64,000 bases of DNA, from assembly GCA_964652135.1 (NCBI GenBank), contig CAZZAF010000003.1, positions 4,371 through 68,370 on the forward strand, in the 5' to 3' direction. The notes beneath the pieces are model-generated. The model was not told the origin of the DNA and ran no database searches. It saw nothing but the letters and a program-made list of their open reading frames with translations. The stretch is from an uncultured archaeon. GTDB lineage: Archaea > Halobacteriota > Archaeoglobi > Archaeoglobales > Archaeoglobaceae. Shown here piece after piece: positions 3,669 through 61,942 of the stretch. Each line of letters opens with the position of its first letter. Position 1 is the first letter of the stretch. The translations under genes were made by a program, and so were the position numbers.

Positions 3669-4163
3669 TCAATCAGAAATTTGAGTAACTTTGCTCCCTC
3701 TCGCCATTGCTATTTTTCCGGTTCTGACCATCTCCTTGATTCCGTAGTTTCTCATCAAATCCACAAATGCGTTTATTTTATCCTCATCGCCCGTAATCTC
3801 TATTACAAGACTATCTCTTGCAACATCAACTATTCTTGCTCTGAATATGTTTGCGATTTCTATAATTTCTCCTCGATTGGCTGTTGTGGCGGCAACTTTA
3901 ACCAATGCGAGCTCTCTTTCAACACTGTTGTGCGATAGATCACTTATTTTTATCACTTCTACGAGTTTGTTTAGCTGCTTCATCACCTGCTCGATAGTTC
4001 TTTCATCGCCACTAACGACGATTGTCATTCTTGAGATGTCATCTCTCTCGGTAGTTCCGACAGCGAGACTCTCTATGTTGAATCCTCTTCTTCTGAATAA
4101 CGATGCGACTCTTGCAAGGACACCTGGCTTATTTTCGACAAGAACCGCGATGGTACACCTCAT
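3669..4163 (-). CDS. ilvN: acetolactate synthase small (regulatory) subunit
   Basis: 164 aa. ACT domain start MRCTIAVLVENKPGVLARVASLFRRRGFNIESL. Lies 3 nt downstream of ilvB. Confidence 0.9.
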   Translation of the reverse strand: MRCTIAVLVENKPGVLARVASLFRRRGFNIESLAVGTTERDDISRMTIVVSGDERTIEQVMKQLNKLVEVIKISDLSHNSVERELALVKVAATTANRGEIIEIANIFRARIVDVARDSLVIEITGDEDKINAFVDLMRNYGIKEMVRTGKIAMARGSKVTQISD

Positions 4164-4166
4164 CCA

Positions 4167-5837
4167 TTACACCTCCTCGTCGAGAATCTCATTCAGCGCT
4201 GCCCCTACTGGAACCATTGGGTAGACATTCTCCAGTCTTTCAACTCTGAAATCTATGACAACCGGCAGGTCATTGATCTCAAAGGCCTCCTTGAGCGCAT
4301 CCTCGACCTCACTCGGTTTCTCCACGGTCATACCCACTGCACCGAATCCCTCTGCGATTTTCTCGAAACTCATTTCCTTGTATCTGAGGCATGTTGCCGA
4401 ATAGCGTTCATCATAGAAGAGTTCCTGCCACTGCCTCACCATTCCAAGGAACATGTTGTTTAGGATGCAGACTTTGACGGGTATACGATAATCAACACAT
4501 GTTGCAAGCTCCTGAATATTCATCAAGAAGCTACCATCTCCTGCAATATCAACGACAGTTTTTTCCGGAAAAGCAACCTGAGCTCCCATCGCTGCTGGGA
4601 AGCCAAAACCCATCGTTCCCAGACCACCGCTTGAAATGAACTGTCTTGGATATTTCACCTTGAAGTACTGGGCAGCCCACATCTGATTCTGCCCGACCTC
4701 GGTGGTAACAATGGCATCTGGTTTAAGCTCGTATATTTTCTCTATGACATACTGCGGCTTCAGCTTACCCTCTTCTTTCTTGTACCTTAGCGGATACTCT
4801 TTCCTCCATCTCTCGACTTTATCCTGCCATTCTTTCCTCTGCTTGTATTTGATGTACTTTATCAGACTTGAGAGGACCTGCTTTGCATCACCAACAATCG
4901 GAACGTCAACATCTATGTTCTTACCTATTTCCGCGGGATCGACATCTATGTGTATTATTTTCGCGTTAGGGGCAAAGCTTGAGACTTTACTGGTCGTTCT
5001 ATCGCTGAAGCGAGTTCCAACGGCAATTATTAGATCTGAATCCATAATGGCATAATTTGCATATTTCAGACCATGCATCCCGATGAAACCTAGGGATAGT
5101 GGGTGAGTTTCAGGAATTGCACCCTTACCCATTAGAGTCGTTACAACAAAAGCCGGAATTGTTTCTGCTAACTTGACAAGTTCTTCGCTCGCATTGGAAA
5201 GGATAACACCTCCGCCTGCAAGAATAATCGGTCTTTCAGACTTCATTATCAGTTCTGCAGCCCTTTTAATTTGTCTTGGATGTCCTTTCGTTTTTGGTTT
5301 ATATCCTCTCAGCTCAACCTTTTTTGGATATTTGAACTCTATATCTGCCGTTGTAATATCTTTGGGCAGATCGATTAACACCGGTCCGGGTCTTCCAGTT
5401 GAAGCGATGTAAAAAGCCTCTTTAACTGTTGGCAGCAGAGTTGACGGATCGGTCACGAGGTAATTGTGCTTTGTAATTGGCATTGTTATTCCGGTAATAT
5501 CTGCTTCCTGGAAAGCATCATTACCTATGAAGCTTCTCGGCACCTGTCCTGTCATGACGACAATCGGTGAGGAGTCCATATAGGCTGTTGCTATACCAGT
5601 AACCGTGTTTGTTGCTCCTGGCCCCGATGTTGCAAAAGCAACTCCTGTTTTTCCGCTGGCCCTTGCATATCCGTCTGCAGCATGAACTGCAGCCTGTTCG
5701 TGTCTTGTTAGAATATGAACTATGTCGGAGTCGTAGAGAGCGTCGTATACTTCAATTATTGCACCGCCCGGTATGCCGAAGACGTGTTTAACACCTTCCA
5801 TCTCCAGAGCCTTAACAAGCGCGTCTGCAGCCCGCAT
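4167..5837 (-). CDS. ilvB: acetolactate synthase large subunit (ThDP-dependent)
   Basis: Motifs [30 protein letters not shown] and the ThDP motif [15 protein letters not shown] at 5837 with AGGTGG upstream is preferred over the GTG at 5846 in the ORF track. Confidence 0.92.
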
Positions 5838-5867
5838 AAAAACCACCTATATATTTAAACACAAAAT

Positions 5868-5951
5868 TTAGTGTACTACTACAATCAAAGCTACTACAAT
5901 CAAAATACCAGAAAAGATCTTGGCAATTTCAACACTATTTTTAGCGAACAT
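5868..5951 (-). CDS. 27-codon Ile/Leu/Val-rich mini-ORF (candidate ilvBN leader peptide; alternatively a tiny TM peptide)
   Basis: MFAKNSVEIAKIFSGILIVVALIVVVH*. This is the C-terminal part of the 63-aa ORF in the track. Its ATG sits about 26 nt downstream of a TATA-like element, and its stop is 30 nt upstream of the ilvB ATG. Confidence 0.3.
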   Translation of the reverse strand: MFAKNSVEIAKIFSGILIVVALIVVVH

Positions 5952-5972
5952 TACTGCGCCTGCCTCTAAAGG

Positions 5973-5982
5973 TTTTAAATAA
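5973..5982 (-). promoter_or_regulatory. TATA-box candidate for a leaderless mini-ORF/ilvBN transcript
   Basis: The - strand reads accAAAAATTATTTAAAAcc. The TATA centre is about 26 nt upstream of the ATG at 5951, which is typical archaeal leaderless geometry. Confidence 0.35.
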
Positions 5983-6054
5983 TTTTTGGTTAAAAAGTAG
6001 AAGATGAAAGATATCGGGGATAGTCTATATAGAACCTGGAAATTACGGACTACA

Positions 6055-6078
6055 CTCAAAAATAAAAATTAAACAAGA
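6055..6078 (-). terminator. oligo-T terminator candidate after the cimA/leuA stop
   Basis: The - strand reads TCTTGTTTAATTTTTATTTTTGAG immediately after the TAA at 6079-6081. Confidence 0.45.
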
Positions 6079-7551
6079 TTAAACGAGCATATTCAAGCCT
6101 TCAAGTACGGCTTCTACTGAGGCCATTATTATATCTGTTCTTGCACCTCTTGCAGTGACGATCTTGTCACCTCTTCTTAGCTGGACGACGACGTCCACAA
6201 GAGCATCTGTTCCACCGGTAATCGCGTCGACGTGGTAGCTCACGAGCTCGATGTCGCCGAGCTCCGTTACAGCTTTCTTTATCGCATTTATTGCTGCGTC
6301 AACTGGACCCAATCCCACGGCAGCCTCAATCTTTTCTTTTCCATTTATTCTTATCTTGACGCTTGCAGTTGGCATTATGTTAATTCCACTCACTATTGAA
6401 AGATCTTCAAGCTTGATCTTCTTCTCTCTCTTAATCTGTAGAACAGTCTCTATAATTGTTCTTATATCTGCATCTGTAATTCTCTTACCTTTATCTCCGA
6501 TCTCCTTGATCCTCGTAAGTATTTCTTTCATCTGCTCTGGTGTTGCCTTATATCCGAGTTCTTTCATTATTGCTTCAACACTGGCTCTTCCAGCATGCTT
6601 TCCTAGGACGATATGCCTTGTCCTTCCAACCATTTCAGGTGTTATGGGTTCGTAGGTGGAAGTGTTTCTGAGAATTGCTGAGGTGTGGATTCCACTTTCG
6701 TGGGTGAATGCATTCTCTCCCACTATTGCCTTGTTTGGAGGGATGGATACTTTAGTGAGCTTTTCAACAAGTTTGGATGTGTTGTATATATTTTTCTTAT
6801 TAATCTTGGTTTTGATATTGTACAGAACTTCAAGTGCTATTGCTACCTCTTCAAGAGCGGCATTTCCAGCTCTTTCACCAATTCCGTTGACGGTTGCATG
6901 AAACTCTGATGCTCCACCCTTTACAGCAAATACGGTATTGACTGTTGCAAAACCGAAATCATCATGGCAGTGGATCGCGATAGGAATGCTGAACTCAGAT
7001 GTTAGCTCTTTCATTATATTTTCTGCTTTCTCGGGAGTTAAGACTCCAACAGTGTCTGCGAAGGTCAGTCTGTCCGCTCCAGCTTCCATCACAGCCCTGA
7101 AAAGTCGTTTTATGAATTCCAAATCTGCTCGTGAAGCATCTTCAGCCCCAAACTCGACTATGAGCCCTCTTTCTTTGGCATATTCAACGGCTTCAACGGA
7201 CATTTCAATAACATCATCCTCACTCTTTCTAGGAAACTTGCTTGAAATGTGAATTTTAGATGATGGGGCTACCATAAATATTGAATCTGCATCAGCATCG
7301 GCAGCAGCATCAATATCAATCTTCTTAATTCTTGCAAAGCTGCAAATCTCGGCATTCAACCCGGCATTTGAAATCTCCTTAATGGCCTTAAAATCTCCTT
7401 CTGATGCAATAGCTGTCCCGGCCTCAATAATATCTACTCCAAGCTTGTCCAAAGCCTCAGCTATCAACAACTTCTGCTCAACACTTAACGAAACTCCTGG
7501 AGTTTGTTCGCCATCTCTAAGGGTGGTGTCAAGAACCATTGGCTCCTTCAT
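6079..7551 (-). CDS. cimA: (R)-citramalate synthase / 2-isopropylmalate synthase family (LeuA/CimA; length and C-terminus look CimA-like)
   Basis: 490 aa with LDTTLRDGEQTPGV, HCHDDFG and a C-terminal LeuA-dimer regulatory domain. The 490-aa length and the ...EGLNMLV end resemble methanogen CimA from memory. LeuA versus CimA cannot be settled without a search. Confidence 0.85.
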   Translation of the reverse strand: MKEPMVLDTTLRDGEQTPGVSLSVEQKLLIAEALDKLGVDIIEAGTAIASEGDFKAIKEISNAGLNAEICSFARIKKIDIDAAADADADSIFMVAPSSKIHISSKFPRKSEDDVIEMSVEAVEYAKERGLIVEFGAEDASRADLEFIKRLFRAVMEAGADRLTFADTVGVLTPEKAENIMKELTSEFSIPIAIHCHDDFGFATVNTVFAVKGGASEFHATVNGIGERAGNAALEEVAIALEVLYNIKTKINKKNIYNTSKLVEKLTKVSIPPNKAIVGENAFTHESGIHTSAILRNTSTYEPITPEMVGRTRHIVLGKHAGRASVEAIMKELGYKATPEQMKEILTRIKEIGDKGKRITDADIRTIIETVLQIKREKKIKLEDLSIVSGINIMPTASVKIRINGKEKIEAAVGLGPVDAAINAIKKAVTELGDIELVSYHVDAITGGTDALVDVVVQLRRGDKIVTARGARTDIIMASVEAVLEGLNMLV

Positions 7552-7611
7552 ATGTATCCCTGAAGAGTTGGGAATGAAGAATCATTTTAAATCTTTTTTG
7601 GTGAGAGTTTC

Positions 7612-12227: not shown

Positions 12228-12578
12228 TTTCTACCACCTCCAACAAAGGTGGTTGAATGACTATTCACATGGTTATTAAACCTTCGTTCATTTGCAGCAT
12301 GGTTGATTTTAAAAAATTAAAGACTTATGTTGGAAATTGAAAGTAAGGATTGATTTTTATAATTTTTTATTTTTTTGCTTTCCCCTTGCTTGTGGGATTC
12401 GGATTCAATAACTGTGTATTTTTTCTGATTGTATTCTTACTATCCACGGTGAGGTTTGATGGAAAAGTGATAATTAGCTCTTATTCGAATGAGTCTCTGG
12501 CTAATAGGAATTTCTGAAAAGACTTGTCAAAATTGTATTAATGGTTATTAATTTGTATTTTTTGGAGTGCAATTTAAA

Positions 12579-42140: not shown

Positions 42141-42482
42141 TGAAATGAATCTTGATGATCTCTACTTTTTTGACGTATTTGTGAGATTTGAGATAATCTA
42201 ACATTGGGGGAAGATGTATGCAAACTCCACCGCCAAGAACTAGTGCTATAAATACTAACTGCTCTTACTGGGGATTTTCGGTGTCTTTATTTGTTCAACG
42301 TCAACTCCTTCGAGACTGTCGAATTCAAAATCGTGCATAATCAGGTGAATTTGTACACCATCAGTCCTGCATCCCCCTCCTAAAAGCGTCTAATGAGTTT
42401 GATATATCATCATACTTTGTAGGATCAAGTCAAAAAATAATGGAAAAGGACATTATGGTATATCTTTAGAATCACTCTGGAA

Positions 42483-42689
42483 TCAGCCCATTCTGAAAGC
42501 CAGTTTGATGTCTTCTGCTTTGACAGTCTTTCTTCCGCTGTGTCTTGCAATCTCTACAGCTTTCTTTGCAATTTCCATTGCTTTTTCTTCAAGGATTTCT
42601 GCCATCTTTTTCTTTGCTTCTTCACTCACTCTTTCAGCTCCGGCCTGTCTTATCAATCTCTCTACTGGAGCAAGGGGTAGCTCGGACAC
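42483..42689 (-). CDS. archaeal histone (HMf family)
   Basis: 68 aa: [33 protein letters not shown]...[18 protein letters not shown] start with GGAGGTGGT upstream. Confidence 0.95.
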
Positions 42690-42733
42690 ATTACCACCTC
42701 CATTTTGATGTATCAGGTGTAAAGTGTAGTATC

Positions 42734-42748
42734 TTTTAATATATATAG
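42734..42748 (-). promoter_or_regulatory. TATA-box candidate for the histone gene
   Basis: The - strand reads CTATATATATTAAAA, about 50 nt upstream of the start. This leaves a leader of about 25 nt containing the SD. Confidence 0.45.
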
Positions 42749-42961
42749 TTTGCGCTGAAAAAACATTACACCGTACTGTACCTGGAATAAATGCGAGTGG
42801 TGTGGTAATACATTCATAGTAGATATGTCTTATGTAGTTCTCTCAAGCAGAGTGATATCAGGTTTTTAATCTGGTTAATTACTTGTTTGATGCAAACACC
42901 TCACGAAGCCCTATCTGTAAGTCCTAATAAAAAATAGGAATTTGCATATAGTATAGCTATG

Positions 42962-61745: not shown

Positions 61746-61942
61746 AGAGATGGTCTAATATTGGTGTATATCGCTGGGGATCTAATTAGAGATGTCTGCA
61801 GAGGTTTTGAAGGTAGGAAGATTGGAAACTGCTGCTTTTCGTAAATATTTGGGTGGTGTATTGTATTGATTTTTCCATGGGCTGGTGACATGTAATGTTA
61901 ATTGGGTGGAATTATAATGATTAATCGTAGTTTCATACCATT

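Follow-up and report, generated by a model that had tools for sequence, protein, structure and literature searches.

The ilvBN locus and its upstream mini-ORF

The window, by which is meant the whole 64-kb stretch of DNA that was analysed, carries the two genes of a biosynthetic acetolactate synthase on its minus strand. The large subunit is encoded by ilvB (4167-5837; profiles NF004710 and TIGR00118) and the small subunit by ilvN (3669-4163; NF008864 and TIGR00119), with all four profiles scoring above the NCBIfam cut-off. The upstream gene on the same strand (6079-7551) encodes an isopropylmalate/citramalate synthase family protein, and directly 3' of its stop is the T-rich tract tcttgtttaatttttatttttgag (6055..6078, minus strand). 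Archaeal termination takes place at U-rich tracts without hairpins, and such tracts are recognised by aCPSF1; by these rules, it is plausible that the tract is an oligo-U terminator that sets the ilvBN unit apart from its upstream neighbour (PMC7515710).

Between this tract and ilvB, also on the minus strand, is a mini-ORF (5951..5868) of 27 codons and a TAA stop (5868-5870), encoding the peptide MFAKNSVEIAKIFSGILIVVALIVVVH* and ending 30 nt before the ilvB ATG. Codons 1-14 are atg ttc gct aaa aat agt gtt gaa att gcc aag atc ttt tct, and codons 15-27 with the stop are ggt att ttg att gta gta gct ttg att gta gta gta cac taa. Ile, Leu and Val (ILV) make up 13 of the 27 residues, and are concentrated in a candidate regulatory codon run at codons 16-26 (5874..5906, minus strand; ILIVVALIVVV), where they account for 10 of 11 residues. 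All five Val codons of the run are GTA, with the remaining ILV positions taken by ATT (three) and TTG (two). The run contains two copies of the 14-nt direct repeat ctactacaatcaaa (5876-5889 and 5891-5904, coordinates and sequence given on the plus strand for a feature of the minus strand) with a period of 15 nt, and so amounts to a tandem duplication of five codons, LIVVA/LIVVV. The duplication is present in the window and in the related locus L168 and is missing from that of Archaeoglobus veneficus (L161); read from these loci, it is this duplication that made the ILV run longer in the window lineage.

Upstream of the mini-ORF is a BRE/TATA promoter, ACCAAAAATTATTTAAAA (5973..5990, minus strand), in a block that is conserved across the aligned Archaeoglobaceae loci. 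Its TATA-like part, TTATTTAAAA, occupies 5973-5982, the first T of the TTTAAA core being 28 nt upstream of the A in the mini-ORF start codon. Transcription is predicted to start at this A or 1 nt earlier (5951..5952, minus strand), giving a predicted leaderless mRNA that begins at the mini-ORF ATG. This class of TATA-to-start distance (28-31 nt) recurs at eight more of the gene starts predicted in the window, and a second class is found at 48-55 nt. The context of the ATG is conserved across loci as (t)caATG, and is gtaATG in the window.

Downstream of the mini-ORF, a first U-tract (TTTT, 5863..5866, minus strand) lies one nt past the stop, and its start is 10 nt downstream of the opening base of the final Val codon. 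It is followed by the ilvB Shine-Dalgarno (SD) sequence AGGTGG (5843..5848, minus strand), whose G-rich core, as GGTGG or a one-base variant, is kept in all loci in two alignments. A second U-tract (TTTTT, 5838..5842, minus strand) lies between the SD and the ilvB ATG, abutting the latter. Much of this had been noted in a preliminary description of the DNA, and on rereading, the 27-codon ORF, its 13 ILV residues, the ten among the eleven residues before the final His, the 14-bp repeat encoding LIVV twice and the exclusive use of GTA for Val in the run were all found to be correct. Likewise, the TATA-like box at a leaderless distance, the oligo-T at 6055-6078 and the TTTT and TTTTT tracts were located where that description had placed them.

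Whether an ORF this short is more than a product of chance can be asked of the window itself. An AT- and T-rich spacer favours ILV codons, and a comparable ORF was obtained in ~1.2% of shuffles of the 150-nt region upstream of ilvB, i.e. about one in a hundred. Against chance, the mini-ORF is the sole outlier in ILV density among the 124 ORFs of 8-60 aa that start with ATG in intergenic parts of the window, with 9/10 ILV in its best 10-residue stretch vs 7 in the runner-up. The probability of at least 13 ILV in 26 residues, given a proteome frequency of 0.265, is 0.009. No other ORF of leader type with a cognate-codon run was found in the window, and there is no conserved antisense ORF at the leader.

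Conservation and codon usage of the leader ORF in Archaeoglobaceae

An equivalent ORF of 12-46 codons is present in 17/17 other Archaeoglobaceae ilvB loci, a count that overstates independence because the loci share descent, and which in our judgement represents ~10 distinct lineages. A comparison with relatives had been put forward as a check in the preliminary description, and this is what it yields, with an ILV-rich ORF before ilvB throughout while the peptide sequence drifts. The full set comprises 18 loci including the window, with 17 distinct leaders, from A. veneficus, A. profundus, A. sulfaticallidus, Geoglobus acetivorans, G. ahangari, Ferroglobus sp. and MAGs. At least two of the Archaeoglobaceae loci came from a metagenome scan, and the remainder from a protein search and contigs. 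The IlvB proteins of the loci compared are 76-96% identical, and the gene upstream of the leader differs among them.

The BRE/TATA block is conserved, with its first 17 nt identical in the window, L168, L161, L001, L002 and L081 and the rest closely similar, and the TATA core lies 27-31 nt from the leader ATG in 18/18 sequences. That ATG is always in frame with the ILV run (18/18 loci), no more than two codons (0-2) separate the last ILV codon from the stop, and from there to the ilvB ATG the distance is 17-40 nt. The N-terminal residues of the leaders are not conserved; the C-terminal ILV run is common to all loci, and at nearly all of them the C-terminus carries VVV, VV or a longer ILV string. 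Across the 17 leaders, ILV make up 71% of the last 8 residues, vs 33% of the remainder of the peptides and 23% of IlvB.

By shuffling, a leader-type ORF would be expected at about 0.006 per locus. A fixed criterion picked out such an ORF at 13/14 of the first-tested Archaeoglobaceae loci vs 1/71 non-Archaeoglobaceae loci. A blind rule that took account of position only (a TATA core 27-31 nt before the ATG of an 8-50 aa ORF, with the start of a long ORF within 65 nt) found the leader in 17/17 sources, and returned just two further matches in the window, of which one was an 8-aa ORF preceding rtcB and the other lay at the 3' end of a longer gene. No leader-type ORF was found before ilvB in Methanosarcinales, Methanocellales, Methanotrichaceae or Methanoculleus, where a citramalate/isopropylmalate synthase-type gene often sits immediately before ilvB. 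The ORF was left uncalled by gene callers in every genome, and none of ten leader peptides, including that of the window, was present in an exact-sequence lookup in a collection of 15 billion proteins.

Codon usage in the leaders differs from that of the genes they precede. Val is encoded by GTA in 59/74 leader Val codons (80%, 17 leaders) vs 10% in the adjacent ilvB genes, and GTA, the rarest Val codon of those genes, is the majority Val codon in 17/17 leaders. The same tendency is seen for ATT (65% vs 26%) and TTG (36% vs 12%). Selection on the ORF is suggested further by the window and L168, between which it is unchanged in DNA although ilvB has diverged, by the long open frame of L169, and by the three closest pairs of loci, where conservation of the ORF is at least that of ilvB and higher than that of the flanking spacers.

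These comparisons bear on both of the fallback explanations that the preliminary description had offered. With a leader at 18/18 Archaeoglobaceae loci vs 1/71 others, and with start geometry and spacing conserved, the reading as a chance ORF in an AT-rich spacer is effectively refuted. A functional small hydrophobic or membrane peptide could be imagined from the hydrophobic runs of 12, 17 and 15 residues in the window, L163 and L003, respectively. The longest uninterrupted hydrophobic run is, on the other hand, 4-9 residues in 12/17 leaders and no more than 12 in 14/17, and Pro, Arg, Asn or Ser interrupt the hydrophobic stretches in cases such as MQTKLSLPSIVVVC, MHEFVVIVVVLF and MRGISLPVRTSILNVVRLVLLF. 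Additionally, peptides that range from 12 to 46 aa show no residue-level conservation beyond the ILV class, the window peptide has no match among Pfam and NCBIfam profiles, and the rare-codon bias is the reverse of what is expected for an expressed protein. A membrane peptide is therefore very unlikely.

A further alternative is that the conserved entity is a nucleic-acid motif and the ORF incidental. The motif, TGTAGTAGTA or a set of (U)GUA repeats, would reside in the DNA or in the 5' part of the ilvBN mRNA, and might be bound by a regulatory protein in the manner of TRAP in Bacillus or an Lrp-type regulator. The window and L168 speak for this most directly. Their ilvB genes are 88% identical in DNA, a divergence of 12% with 174/557 third positions differing, but not one position differs in the 84-nt ORF (100% identity). 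Similarity between the two loci begins at the BRE/TATA block, with none upstream of it. Such identity exceeds what selection on peptide or codons needs, and could reflect a function at the nucleic-acid level or recent recombination. TGTAGTAGTA also recurs at many loci, GTAGTAGTA is found once in the 64-kb window, and the preference for GTA codons is equally readable as a preference for a motif.

Several features are nonetheless those of a reading frame and not of a motif. The ATG stands at the leaderless start position in 18/18 sequences, in frame with a run that is closed by a stop within two codons, and in L169 the frame stays open through 46 codons of AT-rich sequence (P=0.012). The leaders of L166, L170, L002, L081 and L164 lack GTAGTAGTA and still end in ILV, written in unrelated Leu/Ile-codon sequences, and the replacements between close relatives within the run remain I/L/V (V12L and V18I in L002/L081; L7I in L162/L165). 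For these reasons, a motif with an incidental ORF is considered unlikely.

Spacing, RNA structure and a possible mode of control

The distance from the last ILV codon to the ilvB ATG is 35±4.9 nt (CV 0.14, range 26-49, median 35), whereas that from the last ILV codon to the 5' end varies from 30 to 132 nt (CV 0.37). The strong SD and AUG of ilvB follow the leader stop by 17-40 nt, a distance that would allow reinitiation, and reinitiation at leader peptides has been proposed for bacteria (PMC4833913). The ORF could thus be a constitutive uORF with no sensing role, one that loads ribosomes at the leaderless 5' end for termination-reinitiation to ilvB or for protection of the transcript. This would leave unexplained the C-terminal ILV in every lineage (71% vs 23-33%), the 80% use of the rarest Val codon of the adjacent genes and the pairing with the first enzyme of the ILV pathway, and is quite unlikely.

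What the spacing does not come with is a conserved RNA fold. For an alignment of 17 segments, each reaching from the ILV run to ilvB, RNAalifold predicted 0 pairs, and fold z-scores were ~0 across the leaders (+0.6 to +0.8 for that of the window, whose MFE is 0.0 kcal/mol at 75 C). On the minus strand, no terminator-like site was found between 5600 and 6300, where there are only bare T4 and T5 runs. Rfam gave 0 matches at the gathering score over the whole window, and chance-level matches only (E about 5) at 5780-6100. Fold z-scores, the window MFE, the terminator scan and RNAalifold together put a classical alternative-hairpin attenuator out of consideration, in agreement with the preliminary description, in which no convincing one had been found. 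Archaeoglobaceae are typically hyperthermophiles, and weak hairpins melt at the temperatures at which they live. Strong 5' hairpins, in which the 5' end is paired with the Val codons, do occur in two lineages only (L002/L081 and L163/L003), and show that the leader element is not mechanistically uniform.

Taken together, the ORF's conservation, composition, codon bias and placement suggest that it is probably an ILV-sensing regulatory leader ORF for ilvBN, and leader-peptide control of these genes is, as far as comparative sequence data go, strongly supported. The preliminary description had proposed the leaderless ILV-rich ORF as a candidate for such control, and the same geometry and spacing in 17/17 relatives lend weight to that proposal. 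Roughly half of the probability that we attach to a sensing role goes to an output in which termination is shielded, and the remainder to a translational or mRNA-stability output.

In the latter case, the leader ORF would sense ILV as before, with the output coming after transcription. A stalled ribosome could open up the SD or keep it accessible, as in ermC, cat and the mycobacterial poly-Cys sORFs; it could also prevent occlusion of the SD by terminating ribosomes, or keep 5'-3' exonucleases off the 5' portion of the mRNA. The spacing of 35±5 nt would set the leading edge of the stalled ribosome a few nt before the SD, and the closest characterised analogue operates post-transcriptionally (10.1101/834739). 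A suggestive anti-SD segment lies in or near the stall footprint in L167 (z=-2.8), L166 (z=-1.6) and L001 (in the MFE fold). Over all 17 loci, however, the anti-SD duplex has a mean z of 0.0 relative to shuffles (+0.8 for the window), and SD sequestration beneath the stall footprint is out as a family-wide feature, although it may hold in those three; the lack of conserved pairs and of any stable window fold counts against it also. Plain termination-reinitiation coupling would reduce translation of ilvB in starvation, which is the wrong sign, and the variable distance between the 5' end and the stall site (30-132 nt) speaks against 5'-end protection. A post-transcriptional output is a possible, though less than likely, form of the sensing reading.

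For a termination-shielding output, the relevant features are the U-tracts. The segment from the last ILV codon to the ilvB ATG contains a T4+ run at 17/17 loci (product of shuffle probabilities 1.4e-5); 15/64 other window genes have such a run. The first such run begins 1-36 nt past the last ILV codon, and within 18 nt in 12/17 loci. The tracts are short (T4-T6) and variable in position relative to the stall site, with an SD-proximal tract only in 5/17 loci. A tract at the SD-ATG position is found in 11/17 ilvB loci, and a T4+ run no more than 10 nt from the start at 7/66 predicted starts in the window.

Under the mechanism proposed, of which we infer each step, from the transcription start through translation of the ORF and stalling to the entire output, the ilvBN mRNA would be leaderless and would open with the mini-ORF as its first cistron, which would sense charged tRNA-Val, tRNA-Leu and tRNA-Ile. 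Transcription would begin 27-31 nt past the BRE/TATA element, on the A of the start codon or one nt earlier, so that a ribosome could load on the 5'-terminal AUG once this had emerged. The ribosome would then translate the short ORF, the final ~8 codons of which are mainly Val, Leu and Ile and use GTA, TTG and ATT, codons that are rare elsewhere in these genomes. With ample branched-chain amino acids, it would reach the stop and depart; when they are short, it would stall on the run, 26-49 nt (median 35) before the ilvB AUG.

Since there is no conserved hairpin, and U-tracts together with aCPSF1/FttA are all that archaeal termination requires, the stalled ribosome would be expected to act sterically. 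It would sit over the U-tract near the stop and over the nascent leader RNA directly behind an RNA polymerase slowed at the U-tracts before ilvB, blocking the termination factor or intrinsic release and allowing ilvBN to be transcribed. Normal release at the stop would, on the other hand, leave the leader RNA naked, and transcription would end ahead of ilvB. Besides the shortness and variable position of the tracts, two considerations tell against shielding. The T-rich stretch between the SD and the start codon could instead serve translation initiation, and a stalled ribosome uncouples from RNA polymerase, in which case a simple polarity model would give more termination, not less. It is only tentatively that we put forward, as one possibility, an amino-acid-sensing leader peptide, the first in Archaea, that works without an RNA switch and in which a stalled ribosome shields U-tracts from aCPSF1/FttA-assisted termination.

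Significance and comparison with known systems

Ribosome-mediated attenuation is a paradigm of bacterial gene control that depends on the coupling of transcription and translation, and Archaea couple both too. We know of no leader-peptide attenuator described for Archaea, and a full-text literature search did not find one; to our knowledge, the control of archaeal branched-chain amino acid biosynthesis is largely uncharted. The Archaeoglobaceae ilvBN leader looks like the first amino-acid-sensing leader-peptide switch seen in this domain. If this is true, it would be a hairpin-free attenuator based on archaeal transcription-translation coupling, and it offers a concrete, family-conserved case in which archaeal attenuation can be tested, in cultivable Archaeoglobus fulgidus-type strains, A. 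veneficus, A. profundus and Geoglobus. As conserved RNA structure is absent and the hosts are typically hyperthermophiles, the leader may reveal a direct readout of ribosome position, for which the archaeal transcription-termination or translation-initiation machinery may be responsible. Additionally, gene callers systematically miss such ORFs, and scans upstream of archaeal his, trp, leu, thr and phe operons may therefore pay off.

In classical ribosome-mediated transcription attenuation, the leaders are those of trpL, hisL and leuL, and, for the branched-chain pathway, the enterobacterial ilvL (ilvGMEDA) and ivbL (ilvBN). The Archaeoglobaceae leader resembles ilvL and ivbL in being a short ORF before the first enzyme of the ILV pathway, with its Ile, Leu and Val codons clustered C-terminally and its stop just before the structural gene, and it shares the multivalent codon content of ilvL. 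Rare codons for the regulatory residues are also a feature of classical leaders, CUA serving as rare regulatory codons in the leu leader of Salmonella. Unlike the ilvL/trpL type, it is archaeal, with a BRE/TATA promoter, a predicted leaderless mRNA and an ORF without an SD, and it has no terminator or antiterminator hairpins, only short U-tracts, and no match to an Rfam leader family. Further bacterial examples come from Corynebacterium ilvBNC and S. aureus (PMC11857589, PMC10272879, PMC5794164).

Within Archaea, small ORFs in 5'-UTRs have been revealed by ribosome profiling in Haloferax volcanii (PMC10117724) and Methanosarcina mazei (PMC11456600). Their authors call these only potential uORFs, described in the Haloferax paper as 'reminiscent of' uORFs or leader peptide genes (PMC10117724). 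The Archaeoglobaceae leader is likewise a short ORF directly upstream of a longer archaeal gene, and those of Haloferax and Methanosarcina are translated; it differs in its amino-acid-specific codon run, its cognate pathway and the attenuation mechanism proposed for it, none of which is reported for them.

Mycobacterial leaderless polycysteine sORFs with cognate codons, the 'Cys ribulon', act as attenuators (Canestrari et al., bioRxiv 10.1101/834739). In both cases, a biosynthetic operon opens with a short ORF that had escaped annotation, leaderless in mycobacteria and predicted to be so in Archaeoglobaceae. A string of codons for what the pathway makes senses tRNA charging in the former and would do so in the latter, and the architecture is kept while the peptide sequence is not. 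The mycobacterial case, unlike that of Archaeoglobaceae, needs an RNA duplex that hides the downstream SD, and none is conserved in the latter. The two also belong to different domains of life and concern different amino acids, and the Archaeoglobaceae element is found at one operon only.

The proposed output has its nearest parallel elsewhere. The E. coli tnaC leader peptide is said, in work by Konan and Yanofsky (cited in PMC2965389), to govern Rho-dependent attenuation. The logic proposed here is alike in that a ribosome detained where the leader ORF ends would sterically bar an RNA-dependent termination factor from the RNA beside the stop codon, letting transcription go on with no need of alternative hairpins. 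It is unlike it in that TnaC stalls on free tryptophan acting via the nascent peptide, not on uncharged tRNA, and in that the factor there is Rho, at rut/boxA, whereas in Archaeoglobaceae it would by analogy be aCPSF1/FttA at U-tracts. The mode of control suggested for ilvBN would thus be closer to that of tnaC and Rho than to that of trpL.

The mini-ORF and its counterparts in Archaeoglobaceae

The mini-ORF given in the preliminary description is confirmed on the minus strand, with its ATG at 5951, a TAA at 5870-5868 and 27 codons encoding MFAKNSVEIAKIFSGILIVVALIVVVH, of which 13 residues are Ile, Leu or Val (ILV), residues 16-26 reading ILIVVALIVVV. It lies downstream of an isopropylmalate/citramalate synthase family gene (6079-7551) and upstream of the genes for the large (ilvB, 4167-5837) and small (ilvN, 3669-4163) subunits of biosynthetic acetolactate synthase, all three assigned by NCBIfam, after which comes a 2-dehydropantoate reductase-like gene. 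The surroundings (window G+C, 41.7%) also agree with the earlier reading, which listed a TATA-like TTATTTAAAA (5973-5982), a T-rich tract past the stop of the upstream gene, TTTT one base past the mini-ORF stop and TTTTT abutting the ilvB ATG, the last being preceded by AGGTGG. All five Val codons of the run are indeed GTA, and the 14-nt direct repeat noted before (5876-5889 and 5891-5904) amounts to a tandem 15-nt (5-codon) duplication at 5876-5904 on the minus strand (LIVVA/LIVVV), which lengthened the ILV run of this lineage. The duplication is common to the window and its nearest relative (locus L168) and absent from A. veneficus, suggesting growth of regulatory codon runs through slippage.

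The closest IlvB proteins were all from Archaeoglobaceae, with identities to the window protein of 96% (one assembly), 89% (Archaeoglobus veneficus), 84–85% (Ferroglobus and Geoglobus), 82% (A. sulfaticallidus) and 78% (A. profundus). The DNA 5' of ilvB was compared from 17 further sources of this family, obtained from a genome scan (L001-L004), from among the metagenome-scan matches listed (L081-L082) and from contig look-ups of IlvB homologues (L161-L171). The preliminary description had named a comparable ORF in relatives as a test, and a same-strand ATG ORF of 12–46 codons is present at every one of the 17 loci, its stop lying 17–40 nt 5' of the ilvB ATG in every Archaeoglobaceae locus of the set. 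The encoded peptides include MLANCGIRNLELFSVIIVVVQ in A. veneficus, MRKCSRLAELCNLFLSVVVC in G. acetivorans, MQTKLSLPSIVVVC in Ferroglobus sp., MSATLELNNFGVVLGVVLIVVVVLLL in A. sulfaticallidus, MHTHYVNSIIISVSLVVLLVE in A. profundus, and MHEFVVIVVVLF, MKSWTLSLPVSVLLF and MDYSMNLLVLVSVVLF in MAGs. Their N-terminal parts are not alignable between lineages and their C-terminal ILV character is retained, with ILV fractions of 71% in the last eight residues, 33% in the remainder and 23% in the IlvB proteins. Replacements in the run between close relatives stay within ILV (V12L and V18I between L002 and L081, L7I between L162 and L165). The gene 5' of the spacer varies by genome (leuA-like, proton antiporter subunit, CCG/Fer4 oxidoreductase or divergent Asp/Glu racemase, with enoyl-CoA hydratase, RecA-like ATPase, diacylglycerol-kinase-like and acyl-CoA dehydrogenase genes as further upstream neighbours), and the leader element therefore travels with ilvBN.

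Gene callers left the short ORF uncalled in every genome, a 53-residue gene call at the contig edge of the L168 assembly covers the leader frame, and none of ten leader peptides looked up by exact sequence was present in a collection of 15 billion proteins. No such ORF was found 5' of ilvB in the Methanosarcinales, Methanocellales, Methanotrichaceae and Methanoculleus scanned, and in many of these archaea the gene immediately before ilvB is of the citramalate/isopropylmalate synthase type.

When each 150-nt upstream region was shuffled, an ATG ORF of 12 or more codons ending 15–45 nt from ilvB, with at least six ILV in its last ten residues, arose in ~0.6% of trials. Of the first 14 distinct Archaeoglobaceae loci, 13 have such an ORF and the remaining one (G. 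acetivorans) has 5/10 ILV plus VVV; among 71 other loci there is a single case, probably a bacterial leader. Shared ancestry means that the loci are not 17 independent trials; counted by peptide dissimilarity, they comprise about ten lineages. Among the window's 124 small intergenic ORFs the leader alone stands out for ILV density, and the L169 frame stays open for 46 codons of AT-rich sequence (P = 0.012).

Tiny ILV-rich ORFs were also seen 33–44 nt upstream of the ilvB match in Desulfobacterales-type, deltaproteobacterial and Thermodesulfatator loci (L042, L045, L056 and L074: MLLIHLKF, MVLVHLKF, MLIIHLKILLLR and MLLLHFKIMSLR), probably representing a bacterial ilvB leader-peptide family. 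Elsewhere in the window, a 12-codon ORF with four consecutive Ile codons, MKLRLIIIIPPN (61898-61936, minus strand), ends 6 nt before a 189-aa ORF without a Pfam match and has no TATA at leaderless distance. The ~820 nt at 42141-42961 hold no ORF of at least 90 aa and no Rfam match, and are flanked by a type IV prepilin/preflagellin peptidase-like gene and by a 92-aa ORF (no Pfam match) that precedes an archaellin gene.

Promoter, spacing and RNA structure

Alignment of the Archaeoglobaceae loci revealed a conserved BRE/TATA promoter block 5' of the leader, ACCAAAAATTATTTAAA and close variants, and a conserved start context, (t)caATG. From the first T of the TATA core to the A of the leader ATG there are 27–31 nt in 18 of 18 sequences, the bases between being unconserved. 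Across the window, predicted gene starts lie at two classes of distance from TATA-like hexamers, 28–31 nt (eight genes) and 48–55 nt, and the leader falls in the former. This is the geometry of leaderless mRNA, the transcription start being predicted from sequence. The leader-to-ilvB spacers, when read, contained no other promoter-like element able to give a productive ilvB transcript, in which case the ilvBN mRNA would begin with the mini-ORF. A blind rule (TATA core 27–31 nt 5' of an ATG, ORF of 8–50 aa, long ORF starting at most 65 nt on) recovers the leader in 17 of 17 sources and has just two other matches in the whole 64-kb window, namely the 3' end of a longer gene and an 8-codon ORF, MNEGLITM (12265-12291, minus strand). 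The latter has a TATA-like hexamer at leaderless distance and ends 37 nt 5' of an RtcB tRNA-ligase gene. The promoter of the upstream synthase-family gene (6079-7551), ACCAAAAAAGATTTAAA (7586-7602, minus strand), matches the leader promoter at all but 2 of 17 positions, a likeness that could reflect a common BRE consensus or a regulator site present in both; this gene has its TATA core ~40 nt from the ATG and no leader ORF.

The last ILV codon lies 30–132 nt from the 5' end (CV 0.37) and 26–49 nt from the ilvB ATG (median 35, SD 4.9, CV 0.14), so the place of the run is fixed with respect to ilvB and not the 5' end. Between the last ILV codon and the ilvB ATG, one or more T4-T6 runs are present at every locus (product of shuffle probabilities 1.4e-5), and TTTT occurs within 35 nt before the start of just 15 of 64 other window genes. 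A tract starts at most 18 nt after the last ILV codon at 12 of 17 loci and lies between the Shine-Dalgarno sequence (SD) and the ATG at 11 of 17, with the window carrying both (5863-5866 and 5838-5842).

The earlier failure to find a convincing alternative hairpin is borne out, the window leader having z of +0.6 to +0.8 against shuffles and being unstructured at 75 °C, and most relatives' leaders likewise fold no better than shuffles. No bacterial-type terminator was found on the relevant strand at the window leader, no Rfam family matches the leader, and RNAalifold predicted 0 base pairs for the 17-locus alignment that spans the ILV run through to ilvB. The best duplex of any upstream segment with the ilvB SD/AUG is at shuffle level (mean z 0.0, 17 loci), L167 (z −2.8) being an exception and L166 and L163 weaker ones. 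A strong 5' hairpin of ~10–14 bp is present in two lineages, in which AUG-GCUACC at the 5' terminus pairs with a segment of Val codons within the leader ORF, GGUAGC or GGGGUAG (L002:2897-2945 and L081:59-107, z at 75 °C −3.9 and −5.2; L163:2391-2446 and L003:2884-2941, −1.8 and −2.3). Its arms differ between the two lineages yet remain complementary, and it would sequester the 5'-terminal start codon once the first ribosome is past; the window is without it. In L001 (2961-3003), an SD-plus-T4 unit is duplicated in the leader-to-ilvB spacer (gtaggtggttttGTG ... agaggtgggttttATG), creating a possible GTG ORF of six codons, the TGA stop of which shares bases with the ilvB ATG (ATGA), and in the MFE fold the true SD is paired to the post-stop segment.

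Selection, codon choice and ALTERNATIVES

Between the window and L168, ilvB differs at 12% of nucleotides (174 of 557 third positions), and the 84-nt leader ORF is identical (0.88^84 = ~2e-5). The ~155-nt block from the BRE to the ilvB ATG differs by two substitutions and a single 1-nt indel, with similarity lost immediately 5' of the BRE. In the three closest pairs, ORF versus ilvB identities are 1.00 vs 0.88, 0.88 vs 0.81 and 0.89 vs 0.81, the ORF being clearly better conserved than the TATA-to-ATG spacer in two of them; in more distant pairs its divergence outpaces that of ilvB (0.53–0.70 vs 0.75–0.83). Such a pattern would be expected under selection on composition, not on sequence. Because of the nucleotide identity with L168, a protein-binding (U)GUA-repeat motif in place of a coding ORF is ranked as the most serious non-coding rival, but it leaves unexplained the invariant ATG at the start site, the open frame, the stop directly past the run, and ILV endings built from unrelated Leu/Ile codons in lineages without GTAGTAGTA.

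GTA accounts for 59 of 74 leader Val codons (80%), forming the majority in each of the 17 leaders, and has a share of 10% in the neighbouring ilvB genes and of 23% in the long ORFs of the window; Val itself is dominant, with 53 of the 136 last-eight residues. Ile is encoded by ATT in 65% of cases in the leaders vs 26% in ilvB, ATA, the commonest Ile codon of ilvB (55%), is avoided (15%), and Leu is TTG in 36% vs 12%. Simple base-composition bias is no explanation, because the preferred Val codon ends in A and the preferred Ile codon in T. Rare regulatory codons are known in bacterial leaders, the leu leader with its CUA codons being an example; as the source of the bias, preference for a motif at the nucleic-acid level keeps some residual probability. 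A constitutive ribosome-loading uORF explains neither the composition nor the codon bias of the leaders. A membrane peptide is unlikely, as the longest uninterrupted hydrophobic run is 4–9 residues in 12 of 17 peptides and several of the 17 total just 12–16 aa, and no conserved antisense ORF covers the leader region.

Proposed mechanism and comparison with known systems

Control of ilvBN by a leader peptide, as first proposed, is supported as far as sequence analysis reaches, and we consider it somewhat probable that the ORF senses ILV supply. The sensor would work as in bacteria, the speed of the ribosome over rare cognate codons reporting the charging of tRNA-Val, tRNA-Leu and tRNA-Ile. A hairpin switch cannot provide the output. 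If a ribosome stalls while the last ILV codons occupy its A site, it would cover the stop-proximal U-tract, and the ~35 nt that separate it from the ilvB ATG would place it immediately behind an RNAP that the SD-proximal U-tract has slowed. Collided or coupled ribosome-RNAP complexes in E. coli have a similar spacing. The preferred output is shaped by the rules of archaeal termination, in which U-rich tracts suffice, often two in succession, and slow RNAP, being recognised and cut by aCPSF1/FttA (PMC7515710). The stalled ribosome would deny aCPSF1/FttA access and ilvBN would be transcribed, while normal release at the stop would leave the ~115-nt leader naked and transcription would end. The logic is that of tnaC/Rho, and this shielding from termination is proposed tentatively, receiving about half of the confidence placed in sensing. 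The chief rival is an output through translation or stability, modelled on mycobacterial polycysteine sORFs (10.1101/834739) and also resembling ermC, and the lineage-specific anti-SD segments hint at its use in some relatives. Every output model is weakened by a problem of sign: stalling also breaks the coupling of the ribosome to RNAP, and under simple reinitiation coupling starvation would reduce translation of ilvB.

A literature search that included exact phrases, with incomplete coverage such that a report in a subscription journal is possible, found no amino-acid-sensing leader peptide described in Archaea. Archaeal Ribo-seq papers note some 5'-UTR sORFs just as possible uORFs (PMC10117724, PMC11456600), the Haloferax paper calling them 'reminiscent of' uORFs or leader peptide genes (PMC10117724), and one tool paper names archaea generically among the domains with regulatory uORFs. 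The leader is functionally like ilvL/ivbL but is without their alternative hairpins. Its closest likeness is to mycobacterial leaderless cognate-codon sORFs, although it is without a conserved SD-sequestering duplex. Since it does not pass the structural tests that define the two systems, the leader is assigned to neither, and what it would share with them is the sensing principle.
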